64,000 nucleotides of DNA from an uncultured Alphaproteobacteria bacterium (GTDB taxonomy: Bacteria; Pseudomonadota; Alphaproteobacteria; RF32; CAG-239), in the NCBI GenBank assembly GCA_944391685.1, contig CALXUM010000009.1:10034-74033 (forward strand), in the 5' to 3' direction. The notes under the pieces were generated by a model, which was not told the DNA's origin, did no database searches, and saw only the letters and a program-made list of their open reading frames with translations. Position numbers and translations under genes: made by a program. This document shows positions 1,546 through 64,000 of this stretch, one piece after another. Each line of letters opens with the position of its first letter. Position 1 is the first letter of the stretch.

Positions 1546-1920
1546 ATGGCCGATTTAGCCAAATTAGTAGATGAATTGTCAGCTTTGACCGTTATGGAAG
1601 CTGCTGACTTGTCCAAAATGTTGGAAGAAAAATGGGGCGTTTCTGCCGCTGCTGCCGTTGCCGTTGCTGCCGGTGGTGCTGCCGGGGGTGCTGCTGCCGC
1701 TGAAGAAAAAGATGAATTTGATGTTGTTTTAGCCGAATCCGGCCCGAACAAGATCAATGTTATTAAAGAAGTTCGTGCTATCACCGCTTTGGGCTTGAAA
1801 GAAGCCAAAGATTTGGTTGATGGTGCTCCGAAGACCATTAAAGAAGGTGTTGCTAAAGCCGAAGCCGAAGAAATGAAGAAGAAATTGGAAGAGGCTGGTG
1901 CTAAGGTTGAATTGAAGTAA
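1546..1920 (+). CDS. rplL: 50S ribosomal protein L7/L12
   Basis: [41 protein letters not shown]. Confidence 0.99.
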
Positions 1921-1942
1921 TTCAAATCTTAAATGGACTTGT

Positions 1943-1997
1943 AAAAACGGTCGAAATTTGTGTGCTTCTATGTACATTAGATTTTGGCCGTTTTTTT
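1943..1997 (+). terminator. Long hairpin terminator after rplL
   Basis: aaaacggtcgaaat...attttggccg followed by T-tract. Confidence 0.7.
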
Positions 1998-2194
1998 ATG
2001 CTAGAATTGTTGACTTTGGGGATTTTAGAAGAAGTTCTTGTGGAAATATGACCTAGTGTTGAAAAATTTGACATCTATATAATGCGGTGTAGACTGGAAT
2101 TTGATTTTACTAAATAGCAAAAACATCAGATGATATTTTAAAAATTGCGGGCAAAACTTCTAATGTTAGAGCAATATTCGAAAGAGGACGATAA

Positions 2195-3102
2195 ATGGAA
2201 AAAATGAATGTTGACGGAGCAGTTTTTGAGGTTTGCGAAATTAATTCACACTTGAAAGTGGCGGCTTTTCCCCAAATGGCCCAAAAAATAAAAAAAGGCT
2301 GTGGTGAAAATTTTTTGTCGGTGATGGATGGGTATGCTTGTGATTTGCTAAAGTTGCCGTTGGAATACAAAACGCCACCGATGTTTTCTTTTGTAGTTTT
2401 GCCGAGAGGTGATGTATTTAAGCAATTTAGCGGTTGCCCGTTTCCTCATGGAATGGCGGCGGCAAGGTTTGCGGTTGATGCCAATTATCCGGTGCCGTTG
2501 GCAGTTGATGAGGTTTGGTTTGAGCATGGATTTATGTCTGAGGAAAGTATAGAACGAAAAGTGGGACTTTGTCATGAACTTGCACATACATTGCATAGTG
2601 CATGGTTTGATAATAAAGAGGTTTTATGTGAAGGGTTTGCCGAATTGTTGCCTCATTATCTGATGAACCTTGAAAATCAGAATGCCAGACATCGTCAAGT
2701 GATAGAAGCTTTTACTCAAGATAAAATGCGGACAGTTGCAGATATTGATCAAAATGGAATGTTTTCATCCGAAGATTTAAAGCAAAGAAATAAAAACACA
2801 CAAGAGAGAGAAGGTTATATGTCTGTCTATTTGTGGATGTTGGGGTATACCAAGCGTGTGGAAAAAAGTTTGGTTTTGATAAGTTTGAAGCAGTTAACTT
2901 AATGTTATCTGAGTTTGAAAAATTAAGCAAAAATCCTAATGTTTCGGTCTTTGAGGAAATGGCCAAGTTAGTTGGTTTATCTTCAGATATTTTAACAAAT
3001 ACAATACAAATGCAAAAAGAAGGACAAGCGTATGTGCTTAAACTTGACAAGTCTAAACAAGTTATTTCGCTGAAATATAAAAAAGATTTTTTGAACAGAT
3101 AA
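2195..3102 (+). pseudogene. HExxH zinc-metallopeptidase-like protein split by a frameshift
   Basis: CHELAHTLH then EGFAE; ORFs 2195-2902 and 2833-3102 join if one A is added to the A6 run at ~2862-2867. Confidence 0.6.
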
Positions 3103-3245
3103 AGTTTTATTTAAAAACTTGACAAAAATGTTGCGAGAGTTGTTTTTTTGTGCTATAAATTCAGTAGAAAGAAAAATTATTTTGGAGATATTAATCGCTT
3201 GCAGATTGTTCACTCCATGTTATGTTTAATTTAAAATATAATGAA

Positions 3246-3458
3246 ATGGGACTTTTTAATTTTTTTTCGTCTTCAAAAAATAAGGACGATTATTCCGAAA
3301 TGCGTAGAAGACGCGAATGCAAACATGAACATCTATGAGCCGAAGTTGCTGAGTTTTGTGGTCCGAATCGTCGATATGAGATTTATCAAGAATGTCTTGA
3401 TTGTGGGGCGAGAATTTATGTTGGATGGGAAACTATTGCCGAGCATGAGCAACAATAG
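3246..3458 (+). pseudogene. Small zinc-ribbon-like protein (CKH...CLDCG) with internal TGA at 3336-3338
   Basis: Manual translation MGLFNFFSSSKNKDDYSEMRRRRECKHEHL*AEVAEFCGPNRRYEIYQECLDCGARIYVGWETIAEHEQQ; a terminator follows directly. Confidence 0.5.
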
Positions 3459-3460
3459 GT

Positions 3461-3498
3461 AAAACACCCTTTTGCAGAAAATGCAAAAGGGTGTTTTT
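3461..3498. terminator. Bidirectional intrinsic terminator
   Basis: aaaacacccttttgca-gaaaa-tgcaaaagggtgttttt perfect inverted repeat. Confidence 0.85.
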
Positions 3499-3584
3499 GT
3501 TATTTGCCTGTTTTATGGTTAGGATGATTTTTTACAATCACTACTTGCGTTTTTACAAAATAAGTTGCTATTCCTCTCTTGACT

Positions 3585-4298
3585 GTGTAGCTGATGGTAA
3601 AAAGATAGACACCTATGGAGTTGACCATAGCGGTTTTACAACAAAGGACGAAATAGAATATCAAATGGCTCGGCAAAAAAGAGAAAATAGTTTGATAGAA
3701 GGTTATAACAACCAAGGAATAACAGAAAATTACCCTTTAATCAGGCACCAACTTTTGGGGCAAGGCTGATAATAACTACGGTTTCGGCAGTTCAAATATT
3801 GCCGATAATGTTAAAGTTGTCGCAAATCAACCACTAAATATTTCACAGCATCATGATGATTTGAAAGATGATTCAAAATATATTCCAAAATACTGGGAAA
3901 CGGCTGCTGATGGTGAAAAAGTGTGGAATTATGTACAGCAACAAGAAGGCAATGTCACTCCTAAAAAACAAAATCCTTTAAGTTATGTTTGGTCAGCCGG
4001 TAAAACATTTCCTGATATGCTTATAAATTATTTTGATTTGGCGAATAAAAATTTAACTGATAAATACAAACATGCATATATAAATTGTAGTGCTGCTCAA
4101 AACGGTAAAGGAGGTGCAGATGTTGCAACTGGCATTTCTAATGTTTGAGAATGGTATGATGTAAAGTCAAAAGCCAATACTATTGACAGTAGTGAGGCTG
4201 ATCAGTATGCTAATAAGATAGGAAGGCTTCTTGGGACAAAATATCCAGATGAGGATTGTGATGAAATTGTCAAAAAATACATTAAAAAGTACTATTAA
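3585..4298 (+). pseudogene. Repeat-headed cassette with serum-amyloid-A-like C-terminal domain (+1 frameshift at ~3740, TGA at 4146)
   Basis: DMLINYFDLANKNLTDKYKHAYINCSAAQNGKGG...ISNV*EW...SEADQYANKIGR aligns by eye with SAA DMWRAYSDM...DKYFHARGNYDAAKRGPGG...ISDARE...DSLADQAANEWGR. Confidence 0.65.
3621..3815 (+). repeat. Coding repeat copy A (DHSGF...EIEYQMARQ...GTNFWG...YGFGSSNIADN)
   Basis: 195-bp direct repeat of 5002-5196; 22 mismatches by manual count, mostly synonymous. Confidence 0.95.
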
Positions 4299-4461
4299 AA
4301 TAGCTGGAAAAGCTATTGGAATTGCTTTTTTGTTATATTTGCTTTTCTGTTTTGTTTCTGTTGTTATTTTGATATTTGGGTCCGGCTGGAGCTAAATTAA
4401 TATTACAGTTAAAGATAAGTCCAACAGTTTTTTTGAAACAGATAAACATGTAACTACATAA
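4261..4461 (+). pseudogene. Small single-TM protein overlapping the end of the SAA-like cassette (TAA at 4393; either 44 aa or interrupted)
   Basis: MKLSKNTLKSTIKIAGKAIGIAFLLYLLFCFVSVVILIFGSGWS* followed by 21 more open codons. Confidence 0.35.
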
Positions 4462-4477
4462 TCAACAAATTTAATTC

Positions 4478-4512
4478 AAAACACCGCTGATATTTCATTA
4501 GCGGTGTTTTTT
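4478..4512. terminator. Bidirectional terminator between convergent units
   Basis: aaaacaccgctga-loop-ttagcggtgtttttt. Confidence 0.8.
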
Positions 4513-4519
4513 GTTTTGA

Positions 4520-4759
4520 TTATTTATCAACCAGCAAGATTTCAACCTTTTTGCCGTAGTATTTTGCCAAAAGATGCAAAGCACCTAAGTTGACGCTGCC
4601 GCGGCCGAGTTCCAGATTATCTAAAATTCGTTGCGGGATGCCGGTTTCTTCACACACTTGATTAAAACGTAGTTGTTTGGAAATTCTGATATCGTGTAAT
4701 CTGGCGGCAAGAGTTTTCCTGCGTCGTCTTAAGTCATTTTTATCTTGTTTATAGTTCAT
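4520..4759 (-). CDS. XRE/Cro-C1-type helix-turn-helix protein, copy 1
   Basis: LHDIRISKQLRFNQVCEETGIPQRILDNLELG HTH pattern; GGAG RBS; 74/79 aa identical to 63264-63503. Confidence 0.9.
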   Translation of the reverse strand: MNYKQDKNDLRRRRKTLAARLHDIRISKQLRFNQVCEETGIPQRILDNLELGRGSVNLGALHLLAKYYGKKVEILLVDK

Positions 4760-4787
4760 TTTCTTAACTCCCTGATTTCTTATTTAT

Positions 4788-4820
4788 AAAAAGAAACCGC
4801 CTTAATTTAACTTAAGGCGG
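4788..4820 (-). terminator. Terminator/attenuator between the C4-like RNA and the HTH gene
   Basis: Minus strand ccgccttaa-gttaaa-ttaaggcgg-tttcttttt. Confidence 0.8.
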
Positions 4821-4948
4821 GGAGTTGACAACTGATCCAACTGACAGTCCGGGTTATTCGTGCATAGCCTTATATCCCCGGCTCCCCAAAGGGAAGTGGT
4901 TTGTTGGAGAAGGAGTTGTCACACTCCACAGCCGGAACACCCGACTGC
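4819..4948 (-). ncRNA. C4-antisense-like RNA with upstream a1/b1 target hairpin, copy 1
   Basis: GGGGAG...CTCCCC closing stem; a'=TTGTCA and b'=GTTGGA complementary to upstream a1=TGACAA and b1=TCCAAC; covaries with copy 2. Confidence 0.75.
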
Positions 4949-4955
4949 GAAAGTG

Positions 4956-4984
4956 ATTATAAAAAATATTGCTTAAAATGCAAT
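4956..4984 (-). promoter_or_regulatory. Sigma70-type promoter with overlapping ATTGC-N7-GCAAT palindrome
   Basis: TTGCAT-N16-TATAAT, identical in both module copies. Confidence 0.65.
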
Positions 4985-5001
4985 TAATTTATGAAAGATT
5001 T

Positions 5002-5196
5002 TTGACCATAGCGGTTTTACAACCAAGGATGAAATAGAATATCAAATGGCTCGGCAAAAAAGAGAGAACAGTTTGATAGAAGGCTATAACAACTAGGGAA
5101 TAAGTAAAGACTATCCTTTAATCAGGCACCAACTTCTGGGGTAAGGCTGATAACAATTATGGTTTCGGCTCTTCCAATATTGCCGATAATATTAAA
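5002..5196 (+). repeat. Coding repeat copy B (5'-truncated, TAG at 5094, +1 frameshift at ~5121)
   Basis: Direct repeat of 3621-3815. Confidence 0.95.
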
Positions 5197-5269
5197 AACA
5201 AACAAAACCAAGATATAAGTTCCGCATTATATCCCAAACCAAATAGGAAACGATGCCGCAAGTTATAAA

Positions 5270-5947
5270 TTGGCTCAGAATAATCAAGCTAATATGGTGA
5301 GTGATGCAAATACATTATCTGAAAATAATTTATCTGATGATGAATTAATAGAAACCATGTATCCCATTATAAAAGAGCATGAAAATGCAAAACCTTTTCC
5401 ATATTATGATACAAGGTGGAATAAAACTGTTGGCGTTGGTAATAATATTAACAATAAAAAAGATTTTTACGGCACAAATTGGTCTGCTGACAATATGCCT
5501 GCAAACAAACAAGATATAGACTCTTGTTTAGAAAATCTTGAAAAAGAAAAAAACAGAATACAGAAGGAACGAATTTTAGCAGGACTAAATCCTAATGAAC
5601 ACAATTATAAGGCTGATTATTTTGCTCAATTTTGTAACATAAATATTGATGACGATACAATGCGTCAAATGAGTATTGACCATATGAAAGGTGATTTAAA
5701 AAGTTTACGCAAATTAATTCAAAATTTTGATGAACTGAGTTTAAATAAAAAAATGGTACTCATGGATTACATGTATAATTTAGGACCAAATAAATTTACA
5801 GAAAAGGAATTTTCTAATTTTATTAAAGGTGCAAGAACTAATAATCTTGATTTAATGCTAAAACATGACCATCGTTTAGGTATTGACGAAGGACGTAATA
5901 TCTGGACGGATAAAACTCTTAGAAAAGATTTACCAAATAAAAAATAA
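5270..5947 (+). CDS. T4-lysozyme-like (GH24) muramidase domain, C-terminal part of the repeat-B cassette
   Basis: E-x8-D-x5-T triad (HE-NAKPFPYY-D-TRWNK-T-VGVG) and LMDYMYNLG motif. Confidence 0.75.
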   Translation: MAQNNQANMVSDANTLSENNLSDDELIETMYPIIKEHENAKPFPYYDTRWNKTVGVGNNINNKKDFYGTNWSADNMPANKQDIDSCLENLEKEKNRIQKERILAGLNPNEHNYKADYFAQFCNINIDDDTMRQMSIDHMKGDLKSLRKLIQNFDELSLNKKMVLMDYMYNLGPNKFTEKEFSNFIKGARTNNLDLMLKHDHRLGIDEGRNIWTDKTLRKDLPNKK

Positions 5948-5981
5948 CATAAAATAATATATGGTGTGGAGTTTGGTCTAA

Positions 5982-6437
5982 TTAATCAAGCTCCACAGCA
6001 TATGTACTCTCTCCATAAATTGAAGTATCTGGTTTATAATAATAATACTCTTTCACATAAAGAGAAGTGCATTTTCCTTCATCGTCTGTCGTAAAACATC
6101 TATCAAGTTGATATTTATAAATATCATAATGTGTACCCTTTCCTCGCCAATAAATATCTTTACATTTTAAGACAATATAGTTTTCTTCATTTTTTAATAG
6201 TTTACAAGGAACGACGGTCCACCCGTTTTCATGTTTGTCATCTTTGGTATGAATGATAGAATTTGAATATGTCATTGAGGTTGGGGTTAGATAAGTTTCT
6301 TTGCTGCCAACGGCAAAAGGAGCCAATTGTTTATAAAACAGGGGGTTAACAAATTTTTCTTCTTTATTTTGCGTAAATAAACTACAAGCGGTTGTTATCA
6401 GCAAAACAGCCATACAGGCAAACAAGACTTTTTTCAT
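5982..6437 (-). CDS. Lipoprotein of unknown function (candidate immunity protein)
   Basis: MKKVLFACMAVLLITTAC signal peptide with lipobox; four further Cys; convergent with the lysozyme gene. Confidence 0.7.
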   Translation of the reverse strand: MKKVLFACMAVLLITTACSLFTQNKEEKFVNPLFYKQLAPFAVGSKETYLTPTSMTYSNSIIHTKDDKHENGWTVVPCKLLKNEENYIVLKCKDIYWRGKGTHYDIYKYQLDRCFTTDDEGKCTSLYVKEYYYYKPDTSIYGESTYAVELD

Positions 6438-6785
6438 CACCAAATTCCGATAAAGTTATTTGCCTAAAAGCTTAATCTCAAAAGTTGAAGATATTGTTAA
6501 GTCTAAAAAAGGTTTTTTAGGGAGAAATAAAAAATTTGATTTTGGAGTGATTTTTTACTTGCCAGAATCGAAAAAGTGAGTCTATTATCCCCCCGAATTT
6601 GGTCGCTTATGAGCGATGATTGCATGCAATTATTTTAGGTTTTCTCGCCAAGAGGAGCGGTTTTCCTACGGTTTGGCGGGTTTTTTCTTTTTTTTATATA
6701 TATAAACGTTTAACCTTCTGCGTGCGGGTTTCAAAAATTTTTTGATAGGATGGCCGCAGAATTTAACCACAAGGATTAAAATACA

Positions 6786-9700
6786 ATGAAAGAATCTTAT
6801 ACGAGCAAGAGACGTGTAAGAAGAAACTTCGGTCGAATCGATGCCGTTGCCGACATGCCGAGTTTGATTGAGGTTCAGAAAGGGTCTTATGACAGTTTTA
6901 TTCAGGCTAACGGGGCTGAAAAATGCGAGTTTGGTCTGGAAGAAGTTTTCAAATCAATTTTCCCGATTAAAGATTTTTCCGGAAACGGCGAGTTGGAATT
7001 TGTCAACTATGAATTGGAAGAGCCAAAATATGATGTTGACGAATGTATCAAACGCGATATGACTTATGCCGCTCCGGTTAAGGCTACTTTGCGTTTGGTG
7101 GTTTGGGATACCGATGAGGCTACCGGTGCAAAATCTATTCACGATATTAAAGAACAAGATGTTTATATGGGTGATATTCCATTGATGACGGAAAAAGGCA
7201 CCTTTATTTTTAACGGAACGGAACGCGTTGTGGTTTCTCAAATGCATCGTTCTCCGGGTGTGTTCTTTGATCATGATAAAGGAAAAACCATATCTTCAGG
7301 TAAATATTTGTTTGCCGCCAGAATTATTCCGTATCGCGGTTCTTGGTTGGATTTTGAGTTTGATGCCAAAGATTTGGTTTATGCTCGTATTGATCGCCGC
7401 CGTAAATTGCCGGTAACTTCTCTTTTGTATTCATTGTATTCAAAAGAAACCGAAGAAAAAATTGCCAAGCTTGCCAAACAAGGCAAAAAAATTGATCCGG
7501 CAGAAATTAAAGGTATGGATAAAGAAGAAATTCTTAACTACTTTTATGATGCCGATATTTATGTTGCCGATAAGAAAAACTGGAAAGTTAAGTTTGTTCC
7601 GGAACGCATGAAAGGCGTTAAGTTTGAGTTTGATTTGATTAATGCCAAAGATGGTAAAGTTGTTTTGGAACAGGGTAAAAAACTTTCTCCGCGTGTGGCT
7701 CAAAAATTGGCTGATGACGGTTTGGAGTATTATAAAGTTACTCCCGAGCAGTTAATCGGTAAGTTTTTGGCAAACAATGTTGTGGTTGCAAAAACAGGTG
7801 AAGTTTTGGCTGAAGCTGGTGATGAAATCACTCAGGAAATGTTGGATAAGTTTGCTCAAAACAAGATCGGCGAAATTAAAACCTTGTTTATTGACGGGGT
7901 TAATGTAGGACCGTATATCCGCAACACTTTGGCAGCAGATAAAAACAGCTGTCGTGAAGAGGCTCTCTTGGATATTTATCGTGTTATGCGTCCGGGTGAT
8001 CCTCCGACGTATGAGACTGCCGATCAATTGTTCCATGCTTTGTTCTTTGACAAAGATCGTTACGATTTGTCATCAGTTGGTCGTGTTAAGATTAATGCCG
8101 CATTTGATATTCCTTTTGAGGAAGCTCCGGATACTTGCGGTATTTTGCGTAAAGATGATATTTTGCTTATTGTTAAAAGATTGGTTGAATTGCGTGACGG
8201 CAAAGGTGAGGTTGATGATATTGACCACTTGGGTAACCGTCGTGTTCGTTCAGTTGGTGAGTTGATGGAAAATCAATATCGTATGGGGTTGCTCAGAATG
8301 GAAAGAGCCATTCGTGAAAGAATGAGTTCTGAAAATCTGAACAATGTTAAACCTCAGGATTTGATTAATGCCAAACCGATTGCCTCTGTTATCAGAGAGT
8401 TTTTCGGTTCTTCTCAATTGTCTCAATTTATGGATCAGAACAACCCGTTGTCAGAAATTACACACAAACGTCGTTTGTCTGCATTGGGCCCCGGTGGTTT
8501 GTCTCGTGATCGTGCCGGATTTGAAGTCCGCGACGTGCATCCGACACACTATGGTCGTATCTGCCCGATTGAAACACCGGAAGGTCCGAACATTGGTTTG
8601 ATTAACTCATTGTCAACTTATGCCAGAATCAATAAATACGGCTTTATTGAATGTCCGTATCGTAAGGTTGTTAACGGCGTGGTTACCAATGAGGTTGTTT
8701 ATTTGTCAGCCAATGAAGAAGGTAAGTTCAAAATTGCCGAAGCTAATGCCAAGGTTAAAGAAGACGGTCATTTTGAAGATGACTTGATTGCTTGTCGTAA
8801 GGCCGGTGAATTTGAGTTTGCTCATCCGGAAGAGATCAACTTTATTGACGTTTCGCCAAAACAATTAGTTTCTGTGGCTACGGCATTGATTCCGTTCTTG
8901 GAAAACGATGACGCTAACCGTGCATTGATGGGTTCAAACATGCAACGTCAAGGCGTGCCTTTGTTGCGTTCGGAAGCTCCGTTGGTTGGTACCGGTGTTG
9001 AGGCTGTGGTGGCCAAAGATTCTGGTGCTACGGTTGTTTGTAAGGCAGACGGTATTGTTGACGCCGTTGATGCTAACCGTATTGTGGTTCGCTCAAAAGA
9101 TGAGCATGCCGCCGATGCCGGTGTTGAAATTTATCGTTTGCAGAAGTTCCGTCGTTCAAACCAAAATACCTGCATTAACCAAGTTCCGTTGGTTAAGGTT
9201 GGTGATGAAGTTAAAGCCGGTGATATTATGGCTGACGGACAATGCACCGATATGGGAGAATTGGCCCTTGGTAAAAACGTTTTGGTTGCGTTTATGCCTT
9301 GGAACGGTTTGAACTACGAAGACGCTATTTTGTTATCGGAAAGAATTTCTCGTGATGATGTGTTTACATCTTTGCATATTGAGGAATTTGAAGTTATGGC
9401 CCGTGATACTAAATTGGGTCAGGAAGAAATTACCCGCGATATTCCTAATGTTGGTGAGGAAGCTTTGCGTAACCTTGATGAAGCAGGTATTGTTTACATC
9501 GGTGCCGAGGTTAAGGCCGGTGATATCTTGGTTGGTAAAGTAACTCCTAAGGGAGAGTCTCCGGTTACTCCGGAAGAGAAATTGTTGCGTGCAATCTTTG
9601 GTGAAAAAGCCTCTGATGTTCGTGATACTTCTTTGCGTGTTCAGCCAGGTATTGAAGGTATTGTGGTTGATGTTCACGTGTTCTCTCGCCGCGGTGTTGA

Positions 9701-10961
9701 GAAAGACGAGCGTGCTTTGTCAATTGAGCAGGAAGAAATTTCACAATTGGCTAAAGACCGTGATGACGAAATTGCAATTATTCGCCGTAACGTTGAAGCT
9801 CGTTTGAAATCTATGTTGGTGGGCCAAAAGGTTGTTGATGCTCCAAAGGGAACTTTGGCTAAAAATGCTGAGATAACCGAAGCTAAATTGGCTGAAATTC
9901 CTTCTTCACAATGGCGTAAGATCGTGGTTAAAGACGAAAAGACCATGGCAAACATTGAAGAGTTGCTCAATGCTTTTGATGCTCGTTTGGAAAAGATTCA
10001 AAAACACTTTGACAATAAGGTTGAAAAAGTTCAACGCGGTGATGATTTGTTGCCTGGTGTATTGAAAATGGTTAAAGTATTTATTGCTACCAAACGTAAG
10101 ATTCAATCCGGTGATAAAATTGCCGGACGCCATGGTAACAAAGGTACGATTTCTCGTGTTTTGCCGTTGCAGGATATGCCTTATATGGAAGACGGTACAC
10201 CAGTTGATATCGTGTTGAACCCGTTGGGTGTGCCTTCACGTATGAACGTGGGACAAATTTTGGAAACTCACCTTGGTTGGGCCGCTCAAAAGCTTGGTCA
10301 ACAATTGAACGAGTTGTGGGAGCAAGTTAAAGCCGGTCAAAAGACCGAAAAAGATTTGCGTGCCAAACTTAAAGATATTTATGGTGAAAAACAGTATAAA
10401 CGTGAAATTGCCAATATGAGTATGGATGATTTGGATTTGATGATTCCAAACCTCAAAAACGGTGTGCCGATGGCTACTCCGGTATTTGACGGTGCCTCAG
10501 GCGATGATATTAACGAAATGCTGAGTAAGGCCGGTTTGCCGACATCAGGTCAGATTGACTTGTATGATGGTCGTACTGGTGAAAAGTTTGACCGTAAGGT
10601 TACCGTTGGTATCATTTATATGATTAAACTTCACCACATTGTTGATGAAAAAATGCACGCTCGTTCGGTTGGTCCTTACAGCTTGGTTACTCAACAACCT
10701 TTGGGTGGTAAGGCTCAGTTCGGCGGACAACGTTTCGGTGAAATGGAAGTTTGGGCTTTGCAAGCTTATGGTGCGGCTTATACTTTGCAAGAAATGTTGA
10801 CCGTTAAGTCAGATGATGTGAACGGACGTACCAAGGTTTATGAGGCTATTGTTCGCGGAGAGGATAGCTTTGAGGCCGGTATTCCTGAATCATTCAACGT
10901 TCTGGTTAAGGAAATCAAATCTTTGTGCCTGAACGTAGAACTGTTGAACGAAGAAGTTTAA
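6786..10961 (+). CDS. rpoB: RNA polymerase beta subunit
   Basis: [46 protein letters not shown]. Confidence 0.99.
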
Positions 10962-44925: not shown

Positions 44926-47220
44926 ATGACGGTAAAGCTAAATGTTGATAACAATATTTCTCCGCAAAAAATTATCGGAGGGATGTTATGGGTGTGTTTG
45001 TTATCTTTTATTTGTTTTATTATAATATCTATATTATCTTTTGCTTTAATTTATGTTGTTGATAACGGTATTAATGATGAAAGTTTGGATGTTTTAGCTC
45101 ATTCTGCGCAGAAATTAATTTTTGAACCGTCATATTTTTTTGAAATATATGAAAATTGGTGGAATGATTTTTTAGCTTCTATAGGTAATTGGCAATTTAA
45201 AATATTATTGTCCTTGCCTTTTAGTGCTTTGTTCTTATCGGTTTTTTTGTTAAGTGTCTTATGGTTAAAAAACTCATATTTTTTTAGTCTTTGGTATATA
45301 TTTAATCATCATTTTGCCAAGATTTCTGATGTAAAAAAAATGGGAATTTTAGATGGAATTCAAATGGTTTTAGGACGTTTTCAAGGAAAGCTTTTGGGGT
45401 TAAAACATAGTGCATCGGTATTGTGTTTTGGAGAAGTTGGCTGCGGTAAAACTTCAACAGTGGCAATTCCTTCAATACTGCGTTCAGATACTTTAAGTGT
45501 TTTGGCGGTTGATAATAGCGGTGCTTTAGCAAGGCATACAAGTGGATATAGAGCAAAACTTGGGAAAGTTTTTTATTTTAATTGGGATTTGAAAGATGAT
45601 ATTGAAAAAGGGATATTTTATCCAAGGTGGAATCCTTTATCTGAAGGGAACTTGCCAATTAAAGGATTAAAAAGGGATGAATATTTAGGTTTTGTTACAT
45701 CATATTTGGTAGCAAATGAAAAGAAAACTGATAAAAGTAATTATTGGGAGATGTTGGCGTATTATACTATATATTCAATGTTGCATTTTATGGTATGTAA
45801 AATAGAGCAGGCAGAAGCAAATGATTATTTTTTGAATAAAATTTTGGAAAACGGTACTTTGAATAAGTATGATAGAGATGTTTTGTTAAGTTATTATGTT
45901 TTAATGCCTAAAAATTATGCTGAAAAAGCAATAAGATCCATAAAAAAGGATAAGTTAAGTGCTGAAGATTTTTATCCTGTAGGCAGTTGGGCGGGAATTC
46001 CATCTTTATGGCAAGGAAAAAATTTGTGTATTGCCATGATTGTTGATTGGTTTGTTAAAAATTATTTAGGTTCTCGTGATAACGGAGAGTTTGGAGATTG
46101 GTTAAATTGGCTACAATCTTTAAAAACAGAAGCGGGATTATTTAATTATCATAGTGCAGCGGTAGAGGGATTAGATAAACTTTTGGGGCTTTCTAAACAG
46201 CAAAGAGAAATTATATTTGCTTTTATTTTGAGACCATTTAAAATTTTTTTGAACCAATCAGTAAGAGAGCGTACAAGCGGTAATGATTTTTGTTTATGGC
46301 AATTACGTGGAATAAAAAATTTGGAAACAAAAAAATATGAACCTGTAACCATATATTCAACGGCAAATACCAAAAGTTCTAAGTTCGTTGGTCGAATGTT
46401 TGTGGAGATGTTACTGAAATATAATTTAGAGCAACATAAAAATAAAGGAGCATTGCCTATTTTAACGGTGATTGATGATGTCGGGCAAATGCTTAAAATT
46501 AGAGATTTGGTCGAGTGTGTGGCAAAAGGACCAAATATGAAAATGTCTTTTTTAATGTTGTGTAATAGTTTGCACAATGTGGAGAGTACTTACAGCAAAG
46601 AAGCTTTGGAAGATTTGGTGGTTAATACAAATTATAAAATTGTGATGGCTGAAGATACAATAAAACTTAGTAGACAATTAAATAAATTGGCTGTTTTTGC
46701 CAGCAAATCTGTTCAAATTCCGGTGGATGGCGTAAAGCATAAATTTAAACATAAAATTTTTGCCGATTCAAATTATTATCATTATCTGGCTAAGGAACTA
46801 AGGGCTAGAAAAAATTTGAAAATAATTACTAAAGGATATCAAATTTTATTAGTTGAGGGGTTTTATCATCGTCCGGTTTTAACAAAGCATGTACACTTTT
46901 TGAAAGATGAAAAATTTAGACCAAAGGCAGTAATTCCATCGTATTATTTTTTATCTTCTGAGATGGTAAGTGAACGGAATGTTTATGATCTGTATATACC
47001 AACAATTACGGAAGTTTTAGGTGATATGGGGGGAAAAATAGATGATGAAATAGAACTTAATCAATATATGGATATGGTTTATGATGAAATGAAAAATATT
47101 GCACCGGTAACAAAACCGATGGATGATTATAATAATGCAGGAGCGGATTGGTGGTTGCAAGAGGGTGCTTTTGAGGCAGAAAAAAGCTTGCAAAGCAGGA
47201 ATCCGTTTGAAAAAAAATAA
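44926..47220 (+). CDS. VirD4/TraG-like type IV coupling protein (divergent)
   Basis: 2 N-terminal TM, GEVGCGKT..AIPSIL, TSGYR..LGKVF, RWNPL, YW, VIDDVGQM. Confidence 0.82.
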   Translation: MTVKLNVDNNISPQKIIGGMLWVCLLSFICFIIISILSFALIYVVDNGINDESLDVLAHSAQKLIFEPSYFFEIYENWWNDFLASIGNWQFKILLSLPFSALFLSVFLLSVLWLKNSYFFSLWYIFNHHFAKISDVKKMGILDGIQMVLGRFQGKLLGLKHSASVLCFGEVGCGKTSTVAIPSILRSDTLSVLAVDNSGALARHTSGYRAKLGKVFYFNWDLKDDIEKGIFYPRWNPLSEGNLPIKGLKRDEYLGFVTSYLVANEKKTDKSNYWEMLAYYTIYSMLHFMVCKIEQAEANDYFLNKILENGTLNKYDRDVLLSYYVLMPKNYAEKAIRSIKKDKLSAEDFYPVGSWAGIPSLWQGKNLCIAMIVDWFVKNYLGSRDNGEFGDWLNWLQSLKTEAGLFNYHSAAVEGLDKLLGLSKQQREIIFAFILRPFKIFLNQSVRERTSGNDFCLWQLRGIKNLETKKYEPVTIYSTANTKSSKFVGRMFVEMLLKYNLEQHKNKGALPILTVIDDVGQMLKIRDLVECVAKGPNMKMSFLMLCNSLHNVESTYSKEALEDLVVNTNYKIVMAEDTIKLSRQLNKLAVFASKSVQIPVDGVKHKFKHKIFADSNYYHYLAKELRARKNLKIITKGYQILLVEGFYHRPVLTKHVHFLKDEKFRPKAVIPSYYFLSSEMVSERNVYDLYIPTITEVLGDMGGKIDDEIELNQYMDMVYDEMKNIAPVTKPMDDYNNAGADWWLQEGAFEAEKSLQSRNPFEKK

Positions 47221-62965: not shown

Positions 62966-63022
62966 TTGCCGAGCCATTTGATATTCTATCTCGTCAATGG
63001 AAAGAGAAGCCATTATACTCAA
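62966..63022 (-). repeat. Degenerate third copy (C) of the coding repeat
   Basis: Minus strand gacgagatagaatatcaaatggctcggcaa (DEIEYQMARQ) matches repeats A/B and abuts the module at the same junction as copy B. Confidence 0.85.
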
Positions 63023-63039
63023 AAATCTTTCATAAATTA

Positions 63040-63068
63040 ATTGCATTTTAAGCAATATTTTTTATAAT
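63040..63068 (+). promoter_or_regulatory. Sigma70-type promoter with ATTGC-N7-GCAAT palindrome
   Basis: TTGCAT 63041-46, TATAAT 63063-68. Confidence 0.65.
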
Positions 63069-63075
63069 CACTTTC

Positions 63076-63202
63076 GCAGTCGGGGGTTCCGGCTGCGGAG
63101 TGTCGAAACTCCTTATAGGTTAATACTCCTCTTTTGGGGAGCCGGGGATATAAGGCTATGCACGAATAACCCGGACTGTACCTATACAGTTTCGAACTCC
63201 CC
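63076..63202 (+). ncRNA. C4-antisense-like RNA with upstream a1/b1 target, copy 2
   Basis: a1 TCGAAA (63103-08) with a' TTTCGA (63190-95); b1 TATAGGT (63114-20) with b' ACCTATA (63180-86); GGGGAG/CTCCCC stem. Confidence 0.75.
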
Positions 63203-63234
63203 GCCTTAATTTGTTTTTAAGGCGGTTTCTTTTT
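63201..63234 (+). terminator. Terminator/attenuator upstream of the HTH gene
   Basis: ccgccttaa-loop-ttaaggcgg-tttcttttt; only the loop differs from copy 1. Confidence 0.8.
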
Positions 63235-63263
63235 ATAAATAAAGAAATCAGGGAGTTAAGAAA

Positions 63264-63503
63264 ATGGACTATAAACAAGACAAAAATGACTTAAGACGAC
63301 GCAGAAAAACTCTTGCCACCAGATTACACGATATCAGAATTTCCAAACAACTACGTTTTAATAAGGTATGTGAAGAAACCGGCATTCCGCAAGGACTTTT
63401 AGATAATCTGGAACTCGGCCGCGGCAGCGTCAACTTAGGTGCTTTGCACCTTTTGGCAAAATACTACGGCAAAAAGGTTGAAATCTTGCTGGTTGATAAA
63501 TAA
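63264..63503 (+). CDS. XRE/Cro-C1-type helix-turn-helix protein, copy 2
   Basis: 74/79 aa identical to 4520-4759. Confidence 0.9.
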   Translation: MDYKQDKNDLRRRRKTLATRLHDIRISKQLRFNKVCEETGIPQGLLDNLELGRGSVNLGALHLLAKYYGKKVEILLVDK

Positions 63504-63510
63504 TCAAAAC

Positions 63511-63548
63511 AAAAAATGGCGGCTTTAATTTCTAAGCCGCCATAAAAT
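63511..63548. terminator. Terminator between HTH copy 2 and the convergent gene
   Basis: atggcggctt-loop-aagccgccat. Confidence 0.75.
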
Positions 63549-64000
63549 TTAGATATCTGTGTTAAAATCATCAGGTAAATCAGACATATCCACACATTGT
63601 GATTTCATTTCTTGTAAATATTCTTGTACAATTTCTTTAACCTTTAAACTTGCATTGGTATTAACCTGAATCTCGTACATTGTACCGGTGTATAATTTCT
63701 TAGCCAGATCACTATTTTTAATCAAATTTTGATAATGCATATAGGTTGCCTCAATAACCTTATTAAAATCATTTTTGATATCCTCATTTTTATTTTTATA
63801 GAAAGAATCAAAAATTTGATATGCAACATCTTTTGAACATTTTGTTAAATTGTTATAAGCGTTAATCATTTCAATATCTGTTGCGTTATCAGGCATGTCA
63901 ATCTTGCAATTATCTAATTTATTTTCTAGTTGTTTTATCAATTTAGCATTTTCTCCAACACATTCAGATGCACAGATTAATGACGGACAAAACAATATAC
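63549..64000 (-). CDS. Secreted helical hypothetical protein (5' end outside window)
   Basis: Frame open to the window edge; end of signal peptide ILFCPSLICA; Cys-spaced helical body. Confidence 0.65.
   Translation of the reverse strand, partial: ILFCPSLICASECVGENAKLIKQLENKLDNCKIDMPDNATDIEMINAYNNLTKCSKDVAYQIFDSFYKNKNEDIKNDFNKVIEATYMHYQNLIKNSDLAKKLYTGTMYEIQVNTNASLKVKEIVQEYLQEMKSQCVDMSDLPDDFNTDI

Follow-up and report, generated by a model that had tools for sequence, protein, structure and literature searches.

The 64,000-nucleotide stretch of contig CALXUM010000009.1 considered here (the window) belongs to the genome of an uncultured Alphaproteobacteria bacterium (GCA_944391685.1), and in it a preliminary description had pointed to a 195-bp coding repeat that leads into two different C-terminal domains. 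Here, we report that this repeat encodes the conserved N-terminal domain (N-dom) of a family of proteins with swappable C-terminal tails, and that the two window copies are probably (a probability of about 0.8) orphan cassettes, now degraded, from an antibacterial effector-immunity system of the polymorphic kind. The family is in our judgement a real polymorphic toxin-immunity system with an undescribed head domain, found in uncultured gut Alphaproteobacteria. It shows the features by which polymorphic toxins are recognised, namely varied C-termini, an adjacent gene that covaries with them, and orphan cassettes that retain the conserved block.

Two degraded copies of a coding block between rplL and rpoB

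The source genome (1.57 Mb in 25 contigs, about 36% G+C) is 100% complete by marker genes, and the cassettes occupy an island of 4.9 kb from rplL (1546-1920) to rpoB (6786-10961). A direct-repeat search returned a single family of two 195-nt copies, 3621-3815 (copy A) and 5002-5196 (copy B), which are 89% identical. Alignment with the flanks showed that identity sets in at the same base of both copies (TTGACCATAGC), that it ends directly after the NIADN(V/I)K codons, and that the flanks bear no relation to each other, which agrees with the repeat and the abrupt end noticed earlier. The 195-nt block has 18 matches at E<=0.001 in the source genome, both window copies counted, a recurrence far beyond chance. 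The features of the island are as follows.

3525..3582 (+): degenerate left part of the head promoter block upstream of copy A, by copy alignment against the ~130-nt block of five head copies; ribosome-binding site (RBS), ATG and ~10 first codons missing
3583..3815 (+): copy A of the N-dom block; no start; 1-nt insertion within 3731-3740; first frame stops at 3767-3769
3741..4298 (+): copy A tail, linker and SAA-like (prok-SAA/lipocone) domain, broken by TGA 4146-4148 (Pfam SAA E 6.1e-8; translation)
4249..4395 (+): small hydrophobic open reading frame (ORF) with a single transmembrane (TM) helix, 3' of the SAA-like tail; candidate immunity gene; starts 4231/4249
4459..5005 (-): 545-nt repeat unit with a 79-aa XRE-type helix-turn-helix (HTH) gene (4520-4759, -), abutting the 5' break of copy B (blastn)
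5002..5196 (+): copy B of the N-dom block; 5'-truncated; TAG 5094-5096; 1-nt insertion near 5114; second frame from 5122
5197..5947 (+): copy B linker (1-nt insertion near 5232) and T4-lysozyme/pesticin-like tail, open frame 5270-5947
5982..6443 (-): intact lipoprotein gene (signal peptide and lipobox), convergent with the lysozyme-like tail; candidate cognate immunity gene, family I4
6324..6519 (-): immunity-gene 5' block, comprising upstream region, signal peptide and first ~40 codons (blastn repeat)

The repeat peptide quoted in the preliminary description is real, but in copy A and copy B alike it is a splice of two reading frames. Each copy carries a 1-nt insertion compared to the intact paralogs (CCTTTAATCAGG versus CC-GCAATATGG), and this extra base therefore moves the frame by +1, so that the second frame runs from 3741 in copy A and from 5122 in copy B. 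As had been suspected, neither copy has an obvious start, and the copy alignment shows no start codon in register. In copy A, the RBS, the ATG and about 10 first codons are gone, and an in-frame TGA (4146-4148) falls within the SAA-like domain, while the 5' end of copy B lies at about residue 24 and is followed by an in-frame TAG (5094-5096) and a second 1-nt insertion near 5232. Judged by these lesions, both window toxin genes are dead, but the lysozyme tail has kept an open frame, as has the lipoprotein gene. Given the frameshifts and stops, copies A and B could therefore contribute only via recombination of their intact tail and immunity parts. The earlier idea that silent cassettes recombine into a full-length gene is upheld in that intact full-length copies exist, but it has to be narrowed to these parts. 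The codon differences between the copies comprise 13 synonymous and 5 non-synonymous changes despite the common frameshift, a pattern that may be read as gene conversion among live and dead copies. Two short unitigs from public runs (X1 and X2) span 3716-3851 with zero differences, and they give no independent support because the runs may include the source sample.

The C-terminal assignments of the preliminary description were borne out for both copies. For copy A, the region 3771-4145 matched Pfam SAA (E 6.1e-8, 33.4 bits against a cut-off of 30.8), and the ANKIGR stretch past the stop fits the sNxxGR active-site motif of the prok-SAA clade as defined in passages of PMC12419801. An intact twin of this tail lies at L012:11980-12540(-) (places outside the window are given by contig, C, or locus, L). 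The hydrophobic ORF that follows copy A is shorter than its relatives and is without their Cys-containing tail. For copy B, the 225-aa open frame (5270-5947) shares 36% identity (E 1e-40) with an intact paralog's tail and keeps Glu, Asp and Thr aligned with E147, D156 and T162 of that paralog, and the gene with signal peptide and lipobox lies tail-to-tail with it.

The block encodes a conserved N-terminal domain

When the copies in the source genome were aligned, several started about 40-60 nt upstream of the noted repeat start, with GGAGAA, a spacer and an ATG, and the block is therefore the N-terminal domain of the protein. It forms the N-terminal 85-90 residues or so of proteins of about 200-770 aa, and not an internal pre-toxin region. 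The comparison with orphan cassettes headed by a homology block, drawn in the preliminary description, fits the start-less copies that stand behind or apart from the heads, but here the block begins at residue 1 and the genes encode about 300-770 aa. Intact full-length frames were found elsewhere in the source genome, as the earlier reading had foreseen.

C3:53385 (+): intact member, lysozyme-like, 323 aa
C9:78744 (-): intact member, SLT-like, 402 aa
C17:36369 (-): intact member, 768 aa
C19:26045 (+): intact member, GH108, 306 aa; TTG start, without the head promoter

When 1.84 billion representatives were searched by phmmer with the 90-aa N-dom, 214 proteins matched at E<=0.001. The 150 proteins listed range from 53 to 740 aa, and in every one of them N-dom forms the N-terminal end (offset <=19). 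A word-indexed search gave at least 433 clusters of 177-566 aa with N-dom at E<=1e-10, for which the sole source name is "hypothetical protein". The identity of N-dom across genomes and genera is 60-75%, and the tails are mutually unrelated. N-dom was found in 33 of the 56 genomes of the genus and in 78 of the 201 genomes of the order (6 of 22 genera), whereas other families of the class, represented by 16 single genomes, gave none. The carriers are metagenome-assembled genomes of uncultured Alphaproteobacteria from human, ruminant and bird guts, according to record titles and run labels, with up to 20 matches, whole and fragmentary, per genome. In different genomes, breaks in the frame of the coding block recur at about profile positions 32/33 and 65-70, and these could be mutational hot spots or broken patches spread by gene conversion.

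The repeat is not a known domain. N-dom had no Pfam match in the members of the source genome and 92 homologs, and no NCBIfam match. An AlphaFold2 model built from 78 sequences reached a predicted local distance difference test score (pLDDT) of about 90 over residues 20-80 and a predicted template modelling score (pTM) of 0.70. It consists of an extended N-terminal part, a long helix (residues 30-53) and loops, followed by a disordered linker, and in the full-length model the linker (91-124) is likewise disordered. Compared with solved structures, N-dom had no Foldseek match at E<=0.001 and a best VIA Z of only 4.4, and the ESM Atlas yielded nothing usable. No description of this head was found in the literature, the supplements of PMC12419801, where the architecture might be tabulated, being excluded from that search. 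Many aromatic, Gly and Asn residues of the domain are conserved, and the intact members have no signal peptide. A Tol-box-like reading of its D-H-x-x-F stretch was dropped, since homologs differ from each other at the middle positions and the model places the stretch within the fold.

A second, unrelated conserved N-terminus, which starts with MTNLKSHPVPTYAAYGG, was seen at L013:1330-1908(-) and L018:2564-3055(+), on contigs C17 and C14. One of the two copies has it fused to an SAA domain (Pfam 1.5e-14), the other to another tail. This N-terminus is possibly a second polymorphic head family in the source genome.

The tails are diverse, and most of those recognised are predicted to act on the envelope

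The C-terminus of the family is not fixed. We scanned with Pfam the 92 representatives that have at least 60 aa past N-dom (E<=0.001, several matches being under Pfam's own cut-off), and eight families cover 29 of the 92 tails.

GH108 tails: 11 of 92
Tlde1/YkuD tails: 5 of 92
SAA tails: 4 of 92
VgrG3-like_C tails: 4 of 92
SLT tails: 2 of 92
Phage_lysozyme tail: 1 of 92
Pesticin tail: 1 of 92 (P0054, E 2.9e-6)
PBECR2 tail: 1 of 92
Tails without a Pfam family: 63 of 92

The recognisable tails, namely Tlde1, VgrG3-C-like, pesticin-like, GH108, SLT and prok-SAA, are antibacterial effector domains. Within the source genome, the tails gave Pfam matches to Phage_lysozyme (5e-4, below cut-off), SLT (1.2e-3) and, weakly, PBECR2 (5.5e-5), and the copies on contig 3 matched GH108 (1.1e-15) and SAA (1.4e-16). 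The lysozyme-type tail matched T4 lysozyme in a profile search of PDB sequences (E 0.0013), and pesticin and T4 lysozyme were its top Foldseek rows, with a probability of up to 0.99 and E of 0.02 (pesticin 0.023). E147, D156 and T162 are conserved in the family alignments, and their spacing is presumably that of the catalytic residues of T4 lysozyme. These weak but consistent matches suggest that the tail is T4-lysozyme/pesticin-like. For the SAA-like tails, the portions of PMC12419801 on prok-SAA domains describe them as tips of polymorphic toxins, with immunity partners that are TM proteins or lipoproteins, and predict that they attack lipid-linked head groups outside the cytoplasm.

Adjacent genes covary with the tails

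In order to compare tails and neighbours, 76 related loci and 6 loci of the source genome were assembled, and the tails were clustered on their last 130 residues together with their downstream neighbours. The 76 loci came from an alignment-based scan; a single-protein query gave none. The 80 tails fell into 18 clusters, and the type of neighbour was predicted by the type of tail.

SAA-like tails: same-strand TM families I9 (8), I3 (8) and I13 (5), together 21 of 27 pairs
GH108 tails: convergent secreted families I6 (9) and I18 (3)
Lysozyme tails: convergent lipoprotein I4 (4, plus 1), 5 of 6 scored pairs
T5 (glycine-rich) tails: same-strand multi-TM family I8, 4 of 4
T6 tails: same-strand I16, 3 of 3

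A signal peptide, a lipobox or TM helices were present in every neighbour family examined except I78 and the mixed cluster I2. Neither Pfam nor NCBIfam has a family for the lipoprotein, and NCBIfam has none for the immunity proteins. We infer that the tails are toxic and that the neighbours provide immunity to them.

A structural model of the intact lysozyme tail (residues 126-323) in complex with the mature lipoprotein scored 0.81, compared to 0.00 for the best of 3 controls. The mark of 0.81 was reached by 58 of 80 solved complexes and by 2 of 110 mismatched pairs, counts that hold only roughly because custom alignments were used for this model. At least 81% of contacts are common to the runs, with a partner pLDDT of at least 80. 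On the effector side, the modelled interface includes residues 217-226 and also residues 144-157, with the putative catalytic E147 and D156 among the latter, and therefore places the lipoprotein over the active-site cleft. The model thus supports binding of the tail by the lipoprotein, without showing it.

At the end of the window, the ORF at 63549-63995(-), which runs off the window end, encodes a Cys-rich protein with a signal peptide of family I26, members of which stand beside GH108-type tails elsewhere. A second cassette array begins with this ORF, extends to the end of contig 9 and includes the intact twin of the copy A tail.

A common promoter block and probable recombination between cassettes

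Five copies with an intact start, C3:53385(+), C9:78744(-), C17:36369(-), C17:3815(-) and C13:137(-), share about 130 nt upstream, in which TTGCAT, a 17-nt spacer, TATATT and GGAGAA are found. The TTGCAT/TATATT pair is a putative sigma-70-like promoter. Also part of the block are two AACAATT(T)GTT palindromes. The first lies in the spacer between -35 and -10, the second immediately ahead of the RBS, and both look like operators for HTH proteins encoded nearby. In the start-less copies, the promoter block is lost from differing points. Within the arrays, for example the one between smpB and tadA on contig 3, only the first gene is a live head. Orphan or displaced cassettes that keep a part of the conserved block were found in the window (copies A and B), in the contig 3 array (L011) and in the array at the end of contig 9 (L012), where a lysozyme-tail remnant (below) was seen as well.

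A second conserved block (6324-6519) covers the immunity gene's 5' end, and blastn located it at 10 further sites of the genome with 85-92% identity, over 78-201 nt at nine of them. Convergent pairs therefore have a conserved block on either side, the N-dom block and this one, in inverted orientation. An SLT-type gene near the contig 9 end is followed by a multi-TM ORF whose last 25 residues are those of the lysozyme-tail end, and this remnant ORF (L012:8554-9522) adjoins the usual lipoprotein of that tail (L012:8070-8528). By its arrangement, the remnant is the probable footprint of a displacement by insertion.

The 545-nt unit next to copy B is present in four copies of 91-93% identity by blastn (4459-5005, 63019-63516, C14:22894-23434 and C17:369-914). 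It comprises a G+C-richer stretch of about 245 nt, without an Rfam match, upstream of the HTH gene, whose 79-aa product matches Pfam HTH_31 at E 1.6e-5, below cut-off. The copies at 4459-5005 and 63019-63516 end against N-dom fragments, and the contig 14 copy lies just upstream of the gene of the second N-terminal family. A 30-nt fragment of the unit was also seen at 62966-62995 of the window. In 21 of the 76 related loci, a larger XRE-type HTH gene lies directly upstream of the head gene; the only such larger regulator of the source genome (C1:41835-42553) is apparently frameshifted and is not beside any cassette.

Apart from the cassettes, the rplL-rpoB island holds a single-copy ORF (2195-3102) with an HExxH motif (HELAH) and no Pfam or NCBIfam match, in which a frameshift has apparently produced two frames, of 235 aa and 89 aa, with an overlap at 2833-2902. 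An Rfam scan of 1900-6900 gave two matches, both far under gathering scores.

Proposed working of the system and its delivery route

Taken together, these results suggest the following working. The intact proteins would be made in the cytoplasm as an N-dom head, a disordered N/Q/P-rich linker and a swappable C-terminal toxin, and the toxins would attack the cell envelope from the periplasmic side. The predicted set comprises muramidases (GH108, T4-lysozyme/pesticin-like and VgrG3-C-like), a lytic transglycosylase, an L,D-transpeptidase-like Tlde1, an SAA-like lipocone and glycine-rich membrane-active tails. Each tail would have its own envelope-located immunity protein encoded beside it, a convergent lipoprotein or secreted partner for the muramidase tails and a same-strand TM partner for the SAA-like and membrane-active tails. 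The N-dom coding block and, in convergent pairs, the immunity 5' block would provide the homology for recombination that swaps or displaces tail-plus-immunity units. The outcome would be arrays in which a promoter-bearing head gene is followed by start-less copies, and the rplL-rpoB island would be such an array without a live head.

We next consider how such toxins would leave the cell. In the 100%-complete source genome there were 0 matches to TssC (PF05943) and Hcp (PF05638) of the T6SS (type VI secretion system), with an E. coli control matched. No TonB-dependent receptor barrel (PF00593) was found in it, and TolB and Pal of the Tol-Pal system are present. A contractile injection system or phage tail was set aside as a route, since a sheath gene is present in the source genome but in only 6 of the 56 genomes of the genus and does not track with N-dom. 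The type IV secretion system (T4SS) is encoded at C11:20237-48067, with two VirB2, VirB4, two VirB8, VirB9/CagX and a giant VirB10, and the genome has two VirD4-family (PF02534) proteins. In the T4SS locus, the proteins of 1146 aa and 1521 aa are full of beta-flower/RHS-like repeats, and the larger one carries the TrbI/VirB10 domain. The second VirD4-family protein (764 aa) is encoded in the window at 44926-47220 and is fast-evolving, with 40-70% identity within the genus. VirB4 was found in 56 of 56 genus genomes and 197 of 201 order genomes, and both VirD4 paralogs are near-universal in the genus. Contact-dependent export via this order-wide T4SS is the route that we rank first, as a tentative choice held at less than even odds. 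It is somewhat more doubtful still that envelope-attacking toxins are loaded onto the chromosomal T4SS by N-dom itself, as a recognition domain of a new, N-terminal kind.

Several observations weigh against the picture drawn so far. Many N-dom copies are frameshifted, in the source genome and in relatives, and part of the family may therefore be decaying and not in use. The lysozyme assignment has no Foldseek match at E<=0.001 and a Pfam match below cut-off, and the pass of the complex model could partly reflect solved lysozyme-inhibitor complexes, with T4 lysozyme-spackle among the Foldseek rows. Being near-universal, the T4SS is available wherever N-dom occurs, yet it does not covary with it and cannot discriminate (VirB4 in 197 of 201 order genomes versus N-dom in 78 of 201). 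T4SS signals known so far lie at the C-terminus. The cassettes have no secretion gene linked to them, and the HTH regulator of the 21 of 76 loci noted above is the one additional neighbour that recurs. In addition, the delivery role of N-dom is argued from its position and conservation alone, because no known trafficking domain was matched.

Alternatives to the preferred reading

The proteins could instead be colicin- or pesticin-like diffusible bacteriocins, with N-dom as a receptor-binding or outer-membrane translocation domain, released under HTH control by a fraction of producers, taken up by relatives and acting in the periplasm. This concerns the route only and leaves the toxin-immunity reading unchanged; we rank it second to T4SS export and consider it unlikely. 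The small soluble proteins without a signal peptide do have a layout of head, linker and killing domain, one tail family matches Pfam Pesticin with pesticin at the top of the Foldseek list, and nearly all recognised tails act on the envelope, the exception being one weak PBECR2 nuclease-like match. The operator-like palindromes in the head promoter, the HTH genes beside the arrays, the lack of T6SS or linked secretion genes and the presence of Tol-Pal would also fit release and uptake of this kind. However, the source genome yielded no TonB-dependent receptor barrel and the cassettes have no lysis or release gene beside them. Moreover, N-dom is a confidently folded unit of 85 residues and not a long disordered translocation region with a separate receptor domain, and 60-75% identity across genera is unusually high conservation for a receptor-binding part. 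In a different proposal, the proteins would be enzymes resembling autolysins or endolysins that belong to the cell or to mobile elements, with N-dom as a cell-wall or substrate-targeting module and the neighbours as regulators of self-lysis. Most recognised tails target peptidoglycan or its precursors, the GH108 member resembles a holin-associated N-acetylmuramidase (E 6.6e-14, far below cut-off), and the conserved aromatic, Gly and Asn residues of N-dom would suit such a module. Up to 20 matches per genome with varied tails and matching envelope proteins are not the pattern of a housekeeping autolysin, though, and the glycine-rich membrane-active tails with multi-TM partners and the one PBECR2-like tail are not wall enzymes. 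Phage sheath genes, in 6 of 56 genus genomes, do not track N-dom, and no holin was seen beside the cassettes, so that we regard this proposal as improbable.

The common frame change could, in a further alternative, be a programmed +1 ribosomal frameshift, in which case the window copies would be expressed genes and not pseudogenes. The site is spanned by 13 genome copies. Five of them carry the identical 1-nt insertion variant, and one of these five (C17:3815(-)) has an intact start and no other lesion that we saw; the differences between copies A and B are mostly synonymous in both frames, and split matches occur at similar positions in other genomes. Against this stand the missing start codons of both copies, the TAG and second insertion of copy B and the TGA of copy A. 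In addition, the candidate slip site differs (CTT TTG versus CTT CTG), most homologs run through the site in one frame, and gene conversion from live copies explains the synonymous bias equally well. We therefore rejected programmed frameshifting as highly improbable, and the preferred reading of the window remains that of two degraded orphan cassettes of an effector-immunity system.

Such a system would extend the known polymorphic toxins by a new head domain and probably by a new logic of delivery, in a little-known host lineage of uncultured, small-genome (1.2-2.0 Mb) Alphaproteobacteria of the animal and human gut. About two thirds of the tails have no known family and would be a ready source of new envelope-targeting enzymes and their matching inhibitors. 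The compact layout of a 90-residue head, linker, tail and flanking conserved blocks would also make a simple natural system for the study of cassette exchange. If loading onto the T4SS proves true, this T4SS would be an interbacterial weapon in this gut alphaproteobacterial order, and its toxins the first class of antibacterial T4SS effectors not of the Xanthomonadales type, with an N-terminal and not a C-terminal signal.

Comparison with known systems

The T6SS effectors Tlde1, the VgrG3 C-terminal domain and the Tge-type muramidases share the same catalytic tail families (by Pfam) and envelope immunity proteins, but the source genome is without TssC/Hcp and the family has no PAAR, VgrG or MIX-type head. 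The prok-SAA lipocone toxins (Burroughs et al., eLife 2025, PMC12419801) are alike, in the portions of that paper that describe them, in the sNxxGR-type motif, the position at the tip of a polymorphic toxin and the TM or Cys-containing immunity protein. The heads named there for prok-SAA are PAAR, WXG/LXG, VirD4-binding, T9SS, MuF and cystatin-like, and N-dom is not mentioned, the supplements of the paper excluded.

In the Xanthomonadales X-Tfe/X-Tfi pairs, as described in parts of PMC6759196 and PMC8740702, the effectors are likewise peptidoglycan hydrolases and similar enzymes that do not depend on Sec, and the immunity proteins are periplasmic lipoproteins. According to the same parts of these papers, the bacteria that carry them possess a T4SS on the chromosome, VirD4 included; in the present case both are near-universal. 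The recognition domain of X-Tfe, XVIPCD, is C-terminal, while N-dom is N-terminal and was unrelated to it in the searches run, and the fold searches of N-dom returned no XVIPCD entry. Pesticin and colicin M-type bacteriocins, in passages of PMC3390615, resemble the family as small proteins in which an N-terminal part for uptake precedes a T4-lysozyme-like muramidase tail active in the periplasm, and which have a periplasmic immunity protein. The present family differs in that no TonB-dependent receptor was found, in that one head is common to many killing domains, and in that N-dom has no similarity to the N-terminal domains of pesticin in the searches run.

A close parallel in organisation is with the Rhs, CdiA and MafB polymorphic toxins (Zhang, Aravind and colleagues), which also have a conserved N-terminal part, hypervariable C-terminal toxins and an adjacent immunity gene. 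In both cases, displaced start-less cassettes retain a stretch of the conserved block for recombination. In the present family, however, the conserved part is a single domain of about 90 residues at residue 1, and the proteins are of 200-770 aa and not thousands. None of RHS/YD repeats, PAAR, TPS/FHA or DUF1020 was matched by Pfam in 4 members of the source genome and 92 homologs. A further difference is the second conserved block at the immunity 5' end, which in convergent pairs brackets the variable unit. Judged from gene content and arrangement, the system appears to resemble the orphan arrays of Rhs, contact-dependent inhibition (CDI) and Maf in its working, without membership in those families.

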